Assembly: GCA_918797485.1 (NCBI GenBank)
Contig: CAKKNE010000002.1
Coordinates: 1,116,001-1,180,000 of the forward strand
Reading direction: 5' to 3'
Origin: Pelagomonas calceolata
Lineage: Eukaryota
Length of the DNA stretch: 64,000 nucleotides
Shown one piece after another: positions 8,747 through 19,963 of the stretch (within the stretch, counting starts at the first letter, position 1; each line of letters begins with the position of its first letter). A model generated the notes under the pieces. The model was given only the letters and a program-made list of their open reading frames with translations, was not told where the DNA came from and made no database searches. The position numbers were made by a program, and so were the translations under genes.

Positions 8747-9088
8747 TTGTAATTCATAGACATACATCATAGCCTATTTGTTTGGCAGATACCTCGAGCG
8801 GCAGGGCACGCGCTCGCGCAGCGCGCGATAGCGGCCGCCGAGCTCGCGCGCGTCGAAGGCCGCGACGTCGGCCACGTGCTGTTCCTTCTCCGCCGGCGTC
8901 GCGCCGCTCGAGTGGCTCCGCGCCGCGGCCCCGCCCGCGCCGAGGCATTATATCCGCGCCTTTGCGAACCCTCGTTCGCTAGTTCACACAGAAGAGGGTA
9001 TTCGAACAGTCCGGCTGCAGCGGCGACGCGCCCCCCGCCGACGGCGGATCGGTCCCCAATAAGTAGCTATACTTGTCGTTTTATCCGT

Positions 9089-9804
9089 TAACATATCCCG
9101 TCGACGGGATATGTTATACGGCACTCAGCGTGGAGGTCAAATGCGGCACTTCCGCAAGGATCTCAAAACCGCCACTCGGCTCGGCTCGGTGCGGTACTAG
9201 ACCCGTTTAAGTCTATTATTTACACCACTAAAAATTCAAATTTCAAATTAAAAGCAAGCATGCCATTTGTGTTGGAAGTGGTGCGCTTCATTCAAGACCG
9301 CGACGAGTGGATGGCAACGGGCGGCAAGCTGGAACATGTAGGATACATGCGTGCCCATTTTCGCACGAAGAAGGATGCGGCGTCGTACTACGATCGTCAC
9401 AACCCACGCATGCGAGGGTTGAACGCTTACAACACATGGAGAAGCGACTGGGATCCGACCACAAGTCTGATGTACATTGTGCGAAAAGACCATGACCTGA
9501 ATCAGACGATACCTCCATTCGATCCGAAAGATGAACCAGCCATCGAGCGCACGGAAAGCGAAGTTTGTATTAAATACCGTTGGTTACGCTGATTTCCGGC
9601 AGACATTTGAAATACACTAGGCTAAATCTATTATCCCCTTTAAAATTAATCCATTTTGGCTTACGATTTTGCGTTTTGTGTCTGCGCGTTGTCGTCTACC
9701 GTTTTAAAGGGAAAGTGGGTTTTTGAGTTTTGGGCCGAGTGCCGCGTTTGAGGTCTCCCTAAGTGAAAGTGCCGTATAACATATCCCGTCGACGGGATAT
9801 GTTA
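9089..9804. mobile_element. 716-bp non-autonomous TIR element with palindromic ends and a CCGT target-site duplication
   Basis: TAACATATCCCGTCGACGGGATATGTTATACGGCACT at 9089-9125 is the exact reverse complement of 9768-9804. CCGT lies at 9085-9088 and 9805-9808. The interior is AT-rich and encodes no transposase. Confidence 0.9.
9260..9592 (+). CDS. 110-aa hypothetical cargo protein resembling giant-virus (NCLDV) hypothetical proteins
   Basis: Intact, intronless ATG-TGA ORF preceded by AT-rich AAAAATTCAAATTTCAAATTAAAA. The segment HVGYM..F.TKKDAASYYDRHNP.MR.LNA...SDWDP.T.L.YIVR recalls viral-metagenome proteins (from memory, unverified). Confidence 0.7.
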   Translation: MPFVLEVVRFIQDRDEWMATGGKLEHVGYMRAHFRTKKDAASYYDRHNPRMRGLNAYNTWRSDWDPTTSLMYIVRKDHDLNQTIPPFDPKDEPAIERTESEVCIKYRWLR

Positions 9805-11563
9805 CCGTGACATCGCCTCGGCCTGGGGATTCCGCGCCGCGTTCTCGAGCGCGCCGGGCGCGGAGCTCCAGTCGTCCAAACGCATATCATATCCTGACAA
9901 GTTGCCCCGCGCCGCTGGCGAGTCGAAGCCCGTAGGCTCGTCCGCGGCCTGCGTCGGCAGCAAAGCGAGGACGACGCCCTCCGCGTGTCGGCGCACGAAG
10001 GCCCGCACCTTCTGGATGCCCGAGGCGTCCAAGCACGGCGGTGCGTCGCTTTTCGCTTCGACCAGCGCCTTCAATAATGTAGGGTTCTCCTGCGCGAGTT
10101 TCAGGGGCATGTCGTCGTCCTCCGCGAGGCCGAGCTTATCCAGTAAAGCGCCGCGCACCTTGATGAACAACGCCGTCCAGCCGTTCGCGCAGTCGGCCTT
10201 TCCGGTCTTGCCGTCCCCTGTCCAATGCCGACAGGGATTGACGGCGGCCTCGAAGCCGCTCTGTCCTTGGACCCGCGACGGCACCTGTGTGTGGTCATCG
10301 TTTGGGGGGTAGGACGGAACGTTTATCCTCGCGCTGGACTGCACGTGGTGCCAGAGCGCCAGGTCGAGGCACCACCAGGTCAACTGCTGCGAGAGCATGG
10401 AGTCGTTGAGGGCCTCGCCCTTGGCCGTCATGTCCTTCATCCACGCCTCGGACCTACGTGTCGATTTCACGCGGACGCCCGGAATTTGATTTCCACACAG
10501 CCTCGGACACGCCGCCGTCCGTCACGCCGTCGGTCGAGCTGCGGTCGCTGCCCGCGACGGTTATCAGCGGCTGCACGAGCAGGTTCAGCACGCAGTCGAG
10601 CATCGCGGCGCGCGCGGCCGGCCGGAGCCGCGGCTCCAGAATCACGCACGGGTCGTCGCAGTGGTACGGCAGGGGATAAGGACTTTCCCAGTCACCGTTT
10701 TCGAACGGGCCTCCGGCGGCCTGTGTGGAAATCAAATTTCGGGCGTCGCACGTTGTCCCCGTAACTGCGTCTGCTCGATGGCTTGGATAGAACCTAACTC
10801 ACTGCTTGATTTCCACACAGCCGGCGGCCTTCACCAACGTCGAGTGCAGCCCTTCCGTACAATCCATCACATGCCGTTTGGGAGCGTAGCACCACCGCCG
10901 GATCAGCGTCAGCTCCGTCTCACTCACGTCGGGCGCCAGCGCGTCGACGACGCGGCGCCACGTCGTGTAGGTCGCGCGGACAGCGAGGCATCGGGTCGCG
11001 TGGACGCAGAGCGGCCCGTCCGTGGTCGCGTCGTAGGCGCGCCACGCCGCCGTGGAGTCGTCCGACGATTCCCAGTACGCGCCCTTGCCTTCGCCGAACT
11101 TCGGGTCGAGGTAGGGCCACTGGACAAACTGCGGCCCGCCCTCCGCGTCGGGCGCCGGCGGCGTCCTTGCTAATAGCTTGGACCACATCTCACTATCGCG
11201 CTTGCCCAGCGACAGGATCAAAGCGCGCGTGCCGCTCGCCGTGCCGAAGGACCAGCTGCACTCGTCGGGGTAGATGCGGCCCTTGAGCGGCGAGTCGATG
11301 AGCGTCTCATTTTTTACAGTGACGCGCAGGGACCGCGCCGTGAACCGCACGGCGACGTCCTTCTTAGTTGTGCCGTCGGCGACGGGAATGGTCACCTCGA
11401 GCTCGTCGTCGTCCTGGCTCGTGAGCCTGAAGTTCGACTGGTTTGCGTCGGCGGCTTCGAACGGGTCGAAGTTCTGGTAGTTCGTGCCGCTCGGTCCAGA
11501 GGACATGATACTGCGCGAGACGCGGCGCGCGCCGACGCCTTTTGGGGCGTCGAAGGCAGCCAT
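9802..11563 (-). CDS. CS (p23/NudC-like) domain protein, 3 exons, about 532 aa
   Basis: CS domain (TTKKDVAVRFTARSLRV...LKGRIYPDECSW). Exons 11563-10829, 10720-10509 and 10453-9802 join in frame. The stop codon is supplied by the terminus of the TIR element. Confidence 0.8.
10454..10500. mobile_element. Short degenerate introner (47 bp) with 8-bp TSD; forms intron 10508-10454 (-)
   Basis: Direct repeat CCTCGGAC at 10446-10453 and 10501-10508. One intact family end (TTGATTTCCACACAG). Splicing gives GGVSEAWMKD. Confidence 0.85.
10721..10820. mobile_element. Introner (100 bp) with 15-bp TIR and 8-bp TSD; forms GC-AG intron 10828-10721 (-)
   Basis: Perfect TIR CTGTGTGGAAATCAA...TTGATTTCCACACAG. 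TSD CCGGCGGC at 10713-10720 and 10821-10828. Splicing gives LVKAAGGPF. Confidence 0.9.
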
Positions 11564-13461: not shown

Positions 13462-14547
13462 TCAGACGCGGTCCTCGATGGCGAACCAGCTGCCGAGGTG
13501 GTCCCAGAGCCGCGTCAGGTGCGTCTCGTGCGCGGCGCTCATGGCGTCGGCGCCGGGCGCGAGGAGCGAGTAGGAGAGCGAGTCGAAGCGCGCGCGCGGC
13601 GCGTCCTCCCAGTCGTCGCAGACGACCGCGTGCCGGTAGCCCAGCAGCGACAAGCAGCCCTGCGGCCCGGCGATGTCGAACCGCGGCGGGCCCGTGCGGA
13701 ACGGCGCATCATAACAGACCGTGCAGCAGCGGCCGTCGCGGTGCCGGGCGAGAGTTAAAGTGAGTCGTAAATCGAGCAGATCGGCGCGCGGCACCAGGCG
13801 CGACGGGTGGAGGTCGATCAGCACCTTCCCCGAGCCCCTTCTCAAGGGCCGCCAGTCGGCGACGACCGAGTACCCCGTGTCCGGTCTGAGGACCTCTATT
13901 TCCACTAACGCCGAGTAGCCCCGCAGGACATCAGGTCTAGGTTCCGGCGTGTCTGCTGCTCGTTCTAATCGTAGACGGAGTTTGTAGAGTCGCAGGTACT
14001 GGGCCGCCCGCGGCGCCCTTTCGAGCCGTCGAATCAACTGATGACTACCGCGGGGAAAGAAGTTCTCGACGAGCGGTCGCCACAGCGCATCATCACTACA
14101 GACGCGCCGCCAGTCGTGGGAAACTTGCCGGCACGTCGCGAGTCGCGCCGGAGATAAATAACTCAAAAAGTGCTTCAGGCACTTCGCGTCCAGCCGGAAC
14201 TGGGCTAATTTAGGCCGCGGGCGCGCGCGCGACTTGCGCGGTGACGGCAGAACGGCCTCCAACGCATCGGGTTCGAAGGCGTCGTGGCTGTAGGCCGACG
14301 ACGCGCTGTCAAGGCTCGCTCGTCTAGCGTCGCCGCCGGTATGGGGCTCGGCGGCGGCGCTTGTGGTAAGGGGGTCCTCCGCGGCCTCTTCAGTAGTCTC
14401 GGGCTGCGTCACGGCCGGTTTCCGCAGCTCCGACGGCGGGCCCTCGACACTCTGGGAGACGCGCGCAACCGCCGCTTTCGGTGCCGCGGCTTTCGCTTCC
14501 GTGCGGCGGGACCGCGTCCGGCGGGCGACACACGCCGCGGGGTCCAT
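13462..14547 (-). CDS. F-box domain protein
   Basis: LDAKCLKHFLSYLSPARLATCRQVSHDWRRVCSDDALWRPL. Confidence 0.75.
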   Translation of the reverse strand: MDPAACVARRTRSRRTEAKAAAPKAAVARVSQSVEGPPSELRKPAVTQPETTEEAAEDPLTTSAAAEPHTGGDARRASLDSASSAYSHDAFEPDALEAVLPSPRKSRARPRPKLAQFRLDAKCLKHFLSYLSPARLATCRQVSHDWRRVCSDDALWRPLVENFFPRGSHQLIRRLERAPRAAQYLRLYKLRLRLERAADTPEPRPDVLRGYSALVEIEVLRPDTGYSVVADWRPLRRGSGKVLIDLHPSRLVPRADLLDLRLTLTLARHRDGRCCTVCYDAPFRTGPPRFDIAGPQGCLSLLGYRHAVVCDDWEDAPRARFDSLSYSLLAPGADAMSAAHETHLTRLWDHLGSWFAIEDRV

Positions 14548-18781: not shown

Positions 18782-19963
18782 TCAGCGATAGCCTTGGGCC
18801 TTGAGCATCTCACAAATACCAAGGAAGTTTCGGATATTCGACGCGGTATTTTCAAACATCTTGGTGAACTTGTGAGCGCCGCCGAGGAGCTGCCGGGACT
18901 TGTTGACGACGTCGCCGATGATCCTCTCCGCCTCGCGCACATCGGCGCAGCGCCGCTCGAGGCTGCCCGCCGGCGGGCCGCCGCGACTTGACTTACCCAT
19001 TGGAAGGCCCGAGATGGCGACGGCAAGAACATGGCGGAGAAGTAGCAGAGTATCAGAGTTGGGACGACAATTGCGCACAGCCACGGGGATGGCAGTTTGC
19101 AGAAGTGATTTTGCCTCGGCGTGGCGATCTAATTGCACAAGTATAGTTGACATGGACTCAATCATCTGAAGCGTACGTTCGCTTGATGGACCATATAATT
19201 TCGCACAGCCGTCGCGCGCCTTTTGGTTCAATTCGAGACTCTCTTCTAACCGGCCGAGATGCATGTAGCAGTTCGCGAGCCAGCTCTGCGTGGTGTAAAC
19301 GTTTTCTTCCAGGTTTGGGTGTTGCAGCTGAAAGGCCAATAGTGATTCATATATCGGAGCCGCTTCGTTGTAGAGCCCGGCTTGTTTCAGACCGATCGCG
19401 AGCTGCGCCATCGCTTTCCAATGCCTTTGGGTTTGCCCATTTCGGTTCGCGTAGGTCTTCCAGCACGCCCACCCGAGCGCGCACCGCACGACACCGACGT
19501 ACTGCTGTTCGCACAGGCTGCATCCTTGCCATCGCATCCACGACTCAATCTGCGCCTTGTCGCCCAAACGGTTCGCCTCGGCCTCGTCGTTCAAAATCTT
19601 CGCTTGCTCCGCCAGGCACGACACGTGCGCGAAGCCCGAAGTCCCACGGCACGCACACATGCGCACGAGACCCTCCTTCGTCTTCCAGTGAACGGCCTGC
19701 GTGCATATGTAGCACGTCTGACCCGCGGTGTCCTTGGCGCACGCCTCCGCCGCGACCGCGATCGCTTCCTCACATTTTTTGTCGGCATGGTATTGTTCGG
19801 CTCCGCCGCGGCGCTTGATTTTTTTGCACAGCACCGAGTGGCCGCCCCCTTCCCAGTGCTCTTTCTGGCAGGTGGGTCCACAGTAGCGCGTGTGGCAACG
19901 AGCGCAGCGCGGCGCCGTATGCGAGATGGGTCTTGCGCATGAGGCACACTGGGTCAGGAGCAT
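18782..19963 (-). CDS. MYND zinc finger - RINGv - TPR protein, full-length family member
   Basis: MYND (CASC...CARCHTRYCGPTCQKEHW...H...C), RINGv (CYIC...CACRGTSGFAHVSCL...CSLC), then TPR-like repeats. Confidence 0.85.
   Translation of the reverse strand: MLLTQCASCARPISHTAPRCARCHTRYCGPTCQKEHWEGGGHSVLCKKIKRRGGAEQYHADKKCEEAIAVAAEACAKDTAGQTCYICTQAVHWKTKEGLVRMCACRGTSGFAHVSCLAEQAKILNDEAEANRLGDKAQIESWMRWQGCSLCEQQYVGVVRCALGWACWKTYANRNGQTQRHWKAMAQLAIGLKQAGLYNEAAPIYESLLAFQLQHPNLEENVYTTQSWLANCYMHLGRLEESLELNQKARDGCAKLYGPSSERTLQMIESMSTILVQLDRHAEAKSLLQTAIPVAVRNCRPNSDTLLLLRHVLAVAISGLPMGKSSRGGPPAGSLERRCADVREAERIIGDVVNKSRQLLGGAHKFTKMFENTASNIRNFLGICEMLKAQGYR

Follow-up and report, generated by a model that had tools for sequence, protein, structure and literature searches.

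Introduction

The 64-kb stretch of Pelagomonas calceolata DNA analysed here (the window) contains an intact, uninterrupted 110-aa ORF at 9260..9592 (+), which belongs to a family common in giant viruses. Its neighbours are eukaryotic: MFS transporters, phytoene synthase, RIB43A and a MYND-RING-TPR protein. One neighbouring fusion gene is presumably PHYLLO-like. This raises the question of which unit of DNA carries the ORF and how that unit came to lie among host genes. A first-pass annotation of the locus proposed an exchangeable cassette, in which the gene would be swapped between TCTATTAT repeats, might be transcribed from giant-virus promoters and might serve defence during infection. We favour another reading and hold it to be moderately probable: the insertion at 9089-9804 would be what internal deletion has left of a large virus-like, multi-gene element able to integrate into the chromosomes of picoalgae. 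The parent element is apparently undescribed.

Results

The Insertion and Its Ends

The 716-bp insertion 9089-9804 has 48% GC inside a window of 63% GC. An identical perfect 28-bp palindrome forms each end (9089-9116 and 9777-9804). This palindrome has two matches in the 64 kb and none in shuffles. Outside it lies the target-site duplication CCGT, at 9085-9088 on the left and 9805-9808 on the right. The terminus starts with TAACA, TGTTA (TGTNR) stands at the inner edge of the palindrome, and the perfect inverted repeat of the two ends measures about 37-40 bp in all. The palindromes are followed inward by short subterminal repeats; in the left arm, the arm alignment gives three of the CGGCACT type, at 9119, 9144 and 9170 (+). 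The left arm common to sister insertions extends over 9089..9227 (+) and is 98.6% identical over 139 nt to L020 and L078. Between this arm and the gene lies an AT-rich stretch (9228..9259, +) with AAAAATTCA at 9230-9238 and ATTTCAAAT at 9240-9248. Its first 18 nt reappear in the sister L121 behind different upstream DNA. The 3' stretch of the gene (9593..9617, +) holds ATTTGAAAT at 9605-9613 and is also entered by an independent deletion form, P0071. The right arm common to sisters (9618..9804, +; 95-96% to L020 and L118) contains a direct repeat at 9623-9634, an inverted pair at 9636-9645 / 9702-9711 and a conserved core at about 9655-9680. It is the palindromes and the CCGT duplication that define the unit, not the motifs of the first-pass annotation; both lie outside the interval 9196-9711 to which that annotation was confined. 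No empty allele of the locus was found in 4 runs.

On the right, the insertion touches a host ORF at 9802-10440 (-): the final three bases of the palindrome serve as its stop codon, so that the end of this gene may have been truncated or altered by the insertion. This host gene is transcribed, and an intron of 60 nt spans 10281-10340. Further on lies an inverted repeat of 27 nt (96%), with copies 220 nt apart at 10474-10500 and 10721-10747 and a third, partial copy at 10806-10822. In run X9, many short contigs stack up over 10471-10500. It is possible that this repeat is a second, unrelated miniature element.

Sister Insertions in Marine Metagenomes

The 24-bp core of the palindrome occurs at no fewer than 121 loci in marine metagenomes, a count that covers 39 of the 64 parts of the collection; the total is estimated at about 210. 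When we looked at full palindromes without the usual arm behind them, 16 of the 29 sat between 4-bp direct repeats. The solo palindrome was defined by this flanking 4-bp duplication. After duplicate removal there were 16 distinct solo palindromes and 16 two-ended copies, the window's included, and the two-ended copies span 50-2315 bp. These copies keep both ends between target duplications of fixed length, which are perfect 4-bp repeats in 14 of the 16; L070 has one mismatch and L020 has no duplication. The 30 duplications are 30 different 4-mers, that is, the target has no sequence preference. A fixed-length duplication without sequence preference is the mark of DDE-type integrases. The Punuivirus preprint also ties fixed-length, non-specific duplications to these enzymes (bioRxiv 10.1101/2024.09.03.611062).

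The interiors of the family form a nested series, with lengths that run from 0 bp, in the solo palindrome, to 2.3 kb or more. The flanks reach at most 3 kb, and longer copies are therefore not visible whole. The longer sisters contain several low-GC intronless ORFs, each of them preceded by one gene-front module some 110 bp long. The first ORF behind this same module is homologous between two divergent arm lineages (32%, E 1e-10). No integrase, capsid, polymerase or ATPase was found in any sister interior read. The 242-aa protein of sister L039 has just 7 near-identical homologue clusters and no relative in IMG/VR, and the L039-type interior was missing from three cultured-organism runs tested. 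For a 726-aa protein, the alignment is 95-100% identical.

The main rival reading is that the insertion is a non-autonomous Pack-type DNA transposon, which picks up viral and host fragments in gap repair, and that the 110-aa gene is captured viral cargo. The fixed length of the duplications (4 bp) and the subterminal repeats resemble those of transposons. Some interiors look host-like, with TPR, RING and MYND pieces inside sisters. Moreover, IMG/VR contains no exact copy of the palindrome; a right-arm motif had 0 matches there as well. However, the interiors are not a random collection, since several of them combine the one gene-front module with one virus-like source. The retention of a homologous first ORF in two lineages also speaks against such a transposon, and there is no transposase in any sister interior read. 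We regard this explanation as rather unlikely.

Several further observations concern the same ends. Pieces just inside the left arm of sister L009 resemble the MYND / RINGv / TPR gene of the window at 18782-19963 (-). In L041, a helix-turn-helix protein (266-655; Pfam HTH_3), which we take to be MBF1-like, stands behind the same gene-front module and adjoins a palindrome. Nine contigs of run X2 exit the palindrome into other flanks. The same palindrome is found with other arms in L006, L016, L056 and L061, in L007, L023, L024, L044 and L048, and in L076, L080 and L104. Some of these other-arm palindromes lie in DNA of about 45-50% GC, which suggests that the family may span several host species.

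Breakpoints and Repeats

All the motifs that had been used to draw the cassette are present. The direct repeats are TAAGTCTATTAT at 9208-9219 (+), inside the left arm, and TAAATCTATTAT at 9623-9634, with ACTAG at 9196-9200 and 9616-9620. The inverted 9-mers are ATTTCAAAT and ATTTGAAAT, on either side of the gene, and the inverted 10-mers are CCCTTTAAAA at 9636-9645 and TTTTAAAGGG at 9702-9711. To assess chance, we shuffled the same AT-rich stretches 2000 times with their dinucleotide content preserved. Of these shuffles, 59 produced an 11/12 direct repeat, 96 an inverted 9-mer and 327 AAAATTGA with at most one mismatch; these three tests are weak because they were picked after the motifs had been seen. 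The 10-bp inverted pair arose in 1 of 2000 shuffles and, alone among the four motif tests, all of them picked after the fact, is clearly beyond chance. This pair keeps 7-10 of its 10 Watson-Crick pairs in 11 informative sisters.

The cassette model predicted that sister interiors would vary between the same arms, and it turned out that they do. In L020, the two arms of the window (left, 98.6% over 139 nt; right, 95% over 189 nt) enclose another interior, and L040, L058 and L070 hold further differing interiors. In the window's subfamily, however, the left breakpoints relative to L039 lie 25, 33, 61, 108 (window), 200 and 389 nt in, in a set that omits two rows ending with their contig and one non-aligning row. 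The right breakpoints relative to L020 lie 17, 19, 142, 150, 162 (window and L118) and 181 nt in. The direct repeats lie about 93-100 nt in on the left and about 145-153 nt in on the right. Thus, the breakpoints are scattered and off the repeats, and the exchange points are not fixed there, as they would be in a site-specific cassette. This indicates a deletion series and not site-specific exchange; the left direct repeat is no cassette border. The flanking repeats belong to the arms and are poorly conserved among copies. Of 11 left arms, 4 contain TCTATTAT, and 4 of 11 informative right arms contain TCTATT; both counts drop a twelfth row, L090, a copy of 176 bp whose orientation was wrong. 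The cassette part of the earlier model is largely refuted.

The 110-aa Protein

The composition of the 110-aa ORF (GC 51%, GC3 59%) differs from that of 8 host ORFs (59-71% and 70-87%, respectively). We found 128 homologue clusters of similar length, and the nearest homologue belongs to a cluster of 107. Homologues with 38-66% identity are held by 72 IMG/VR loci, 29 of which are named GVMAG; no viral contig in IMG/VR has a homologue above 66% identity. An AlphaFold2 model built with 69 sequences has a pLDDT of 95.6, and on this prediction the protein is a real, well-folded domain. Its sole significant structure match is an uncharacterised Megaviridae protein (Foldseek E 5e-11). Together with the IMG/VR loci, this match supports the giant-virus affinity that had been proposed for the protein. 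In the PDB, Foldseek gave nothing at E 0.001 or better, there was no sequence match, and the best VIA Z of 4.1 corresponded to no clear match. This does not show that the fold is new. Pfam and NCBIfam contain no family for the protein, PHROG matches were weak (best E 0.01; 69 members), and a prokaryote genome scan gave 0 loci.

In a quick unrooted tree of 152 rows and 116 columns, from which nine chimeric or partial rows and short rows were excluded, the window protein falls into a 39-row group without any IMG/VR member (SH-aLRT 87, modest support). Judging from this modestly supported group, a viral donor of the gene can hardly be named. The same group includes a Prymnesium protein; P0152, from a protein set of the haptophyte Prymnesium polylepis, is about 80% identical to the 110-aa protein, and close relatives may therefore cross algal groups. 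Among 21 neighbours at 3 loci scanned, TFIIS, Rpb6 and an Rpb9-like gene adjoin the homologue in L125. A GNAT-like part is present in 4 of 25 longer homologues (one Pfam match with E 2e-4, one weak, two by a shared motif only). One might guess, with considerable doubt, that the protein is a small domain with a binding or adaptor role and works as a partner of acetyltransferases.

We also assessed whether the gene had arrived as captured cargo. In two predicted proteins from other samples, P0053 and P0093, left-arm DNA is fused to the 3' half of the gene. In P0071, a predicted protein from another sample, the 5' half of the gene is fused to the right arm. The three fusions suggest that the gene is a long-standing resident beside the right arm and not a one-off capture. 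Compared in this way, the sequences make it likely that it is one of the parent element's own genes. The giant-virus family of the gene agrees with the idea of a viral origin, but the gene looks resident in the parent element and not like captured cargo.

Promoter Motifs and Expression

The promoter proposed for the gene rests on AAAATTGA, which we take to be the Mimiviridae early promoter motif. The window has AAAATTCA upstream of the 110-aa ORF and not the exact AAAATTGA. For comparison we used 48 non-redundant viral homologues, obtained from the 72 loci after dropping duplicates and 4 loci without a start codon. AAAATTGA lies within 150 nt upstream in 2 of these 48, compared with 51 of 444 neighbouring ORFs, and AAAATTCA lies upstream in 1 of 48. 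This argues against AAAATTCA as an inherited viral promoter. TCTA in AT-rich DNA is described as the mavirus/CroV late motif (PMC8547959). In the window, the TCTA at 9212 is part of the left arm, where TCTATTAT is poorly kept, and a late promoter is not borne out either.

In one poly(A) culture RNA-seq run, of which about 6% was used (775 reads on the window), RNA depth was 0 over 9237-9571 and about 30-130 over the flanking genes; the sample has the same species label as the source of the window and differs from it. This sample appears to hold the insertion: it gave a 199-nt contig of the ORF, identical in sequence and at depth 2.3, and X13 contains a right-junction contig. Silence in culture is compatible with a promoter that works only during infection. 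The variation of interiors between the same arms and the giant-virus homologues of the protein also agree with a cassette of giant-virus origin that acts in defence. Nevertheless, the scattered breakpoints, the repeats present in so few arms, and a promoter-like motif that is common in shuffles and rare before viral homologues make the model as a whole highly improbable.

A Virus-Like Contig with the Same Gene-Front Module

A scan with the gene-front module led to IMG/VR contig 3300030231_001001, which is 89,861 bp long with about 40% GC and was one of 4 matches. The module matches L194-L196 and L198 are unrelated phage-like contigs and were taken as chance. In contig 3300030231_001001 the module is present five times in the first 5.8 kb and is 95% identical over 128 nt to L039. 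The interior of sister L063 consists of just 137 nt that are 100% identical to the middle of an ORF of this contig; a mid-ORF fragment of this size is also what a Pack-type transposon could carry. The DUF285 repeats of the contig resemble sequence that adjoins the palindrome of L108. The contig also has another short motif in common with L121, where it sits just upstream of the AT-rich stretch that precedes the window gene.

We examined 15.8 kb of the 89.9 kb of the contig. This part consists of DUF285 and unknown ORFs, and it contains no capsid, PolB, A32 ATPase, RNA polymerase or integrase, and neither the palindrome nor the 110-aa gene. Its first 8 kb have no match among phages, and for the 1015-aa protein Atlas matches were at chance level only (0.80-0.81). 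The contig is common in ocean samples. Eight of the ten proteins tested are on record, on 17-50 contigs each, and their relatives lie on contigs of 86-139 kb (up to 138,703 bp). NCBI nr assigns the close relatives P0299, P0300, P0315, P0342 and P0350 to a Verrucomicrobiales MAG, which is probably mis-binning. DUF285-rich DNA is reported as typical of the pelagophyte virus AaV and is present in a viral insert of its host (PMC10720644, bioRxiv 2024.10.30.620910).

Two other features of this virus-like contig were noted. The end of one of its ORFs (L202, 10863-10937) is 79% identical to the F-box gene of the window at 14233-14307, which suggests that the owner of the contig picked up DNA from such a host. 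At 8900-10100 of L202, a 1.2-kb AT-rich (25% GC) array of imperfect short repeats lies between ORFs and is possibly an origin.

The size of these contigs bears on the nature of the parent, which might instead be a Polinton-like virus (PLV) or virophage, 15-40 kb long and dependent on a giant virus, with the gene-front module as its promoter. Low-GC intronless ORFs behind a repeated motif, terminal repeats and short duplications do resemble EMALEs and PLVs. However, contigs of 86-139 kb with matching genes are beyond the 14-40 kb of PLVs, a perfect inverted repeat of about 37-40 bp is short beside the hundreds of bp in PLVs, and no PLV core gene was found in the interiors read. A parent of this kind is quite unlikely.

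Discussion

The reading of the insertion as a deletion relic draws on the shared ends and duplications, the scattered breakpoints, the gene-arm fusions, the contig matches and the Punuivirus precedent. Against it, the two arms, together with the gene and a long stretch of viral interior, are not joined in any single record. We infer that an integrase is involved, that the parent is viral and how the solo palindromes arise. A DDE-type integrase with a 4-nt stagger would join the palindromic ends to host DNA. The integrated copy would then collapse at scattered points, through deletion or abortive gap repair, and would retain both arms and the genes adjoining them. Since the two palindromes also form a pair of direct repeats, recombination between them could finally leave a solo palindrome with its duplication. 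At the present locus, the gene beside the right arm would have survived intact and remained silent in culture.

More tentatively, the parent may be an abundant, undescribed large DNA virus of open-ocean picoalgae, of 90-140 kb or more, linear, with 28-bp palindromes as its ends, integrating with a 4-bp stagger and leaving relics down to solo palindromes. The element is undescribed in the literature searched, which covered neither supplements nor Repbase nor most subscription journals, and it may be described there.

A single gene at one locus is probably of little consequence alone. If the parent is such a large virus, solo palindromes would be a countable record of past infection, as solo LTRs are for retroviruses, and the integration signature would differ from those of punuiviruses and phaeoviruses. 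A viral parent of any kind would point to latency or integration in a very common marine picoalgal group. The palindrome with its 4-bp duplication is a short tag by which insertions can be counted and the full genome fished from long reads. Integration of large DNA viruses is only partly known, and a third signature with a countable footprint would make it testable. Even on the transposon reading, the family provides a route for giant-virus genes into algal chromosomes.

Comparison with Known Systems

Transpovirons are linear episomes of about 7 kb that have a helicase gene and are carried by giant viruses; the window copy is chromosomal and without a helicase. With Ginger1 the insertion shares 4-bp duplications, CCGT in the window, and TGTTA (TGTNR) at the inner edge of the palindrome. 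Ginger1 duplications, however, are nearly all CCGG or CCGT, whereas all 30 differ here (PMC2836005). We rejected Ginger1 identity, for which a TGTNR terminus is expected, as the true terminus is TAACA and the target specificity fails. In KolobokP, as here, each terminus is formed by a direct repeat that has inverted ends of its own, and single end units between target duplications are common (PMC9587614). Its terminal direct repeats, however, are of 450 or 660 bp with RR..YY ends, in contrast to a 28-bp unit that starts with TA, and the interiors read here lack a transposase (PMC9587614).

EMALEs and PLVs are likewise low-GC integrated elements with terminal repeats, type-specific motifs before their genes and short duplications, mostly of 3-5 bp in EMALEs (PMC8547959) and of about 4-6 bp in PLVs (PMC12220804). 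They differ in having much longer inverted repeats, lengths of 14-40 kb and capsid genes, no capsid being present in the interiors read here (PMC8547959, PMC12220804). Phaeoviruses are integrating giant viruses of stramenopile algae, and their endogenous copies have a palindromic site (N15-type telRL) proposed to form hairpin ends (PMC13236599). By analogy, we may speculate that the palindromes described here are opened hairpin telomeres. The phaeovirus palindrome is internal, and integration occurs at CC via a tyrosine recombinase, in contrast to palindromes at both ends and a target that is not sequence-specific (PMC13236599).

By analogy, the closest precedent is provided by the Punuivirus relics in Chlamydomonas reinhardtii, for which the preprint reports that no candidate integrase was found (bioRxiv 10.1101/2024.09.03.611062). 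The endogenous Punuivirus (GEVE) has terminal repeats of 10.8-14.8 kb with ACC-GGT termini, where our family has 28-bp palindromes. Its duplications are of 6 bp and its relics of 5.3-48 kb, as against 4 bp and 28 bp to 2.3 kb. For Punuivirus the full virus with its hallmark genes is known; the putative parent of the present insertions is represented by fragments (bioRxiv 10.1101/2024.09.03.611062).
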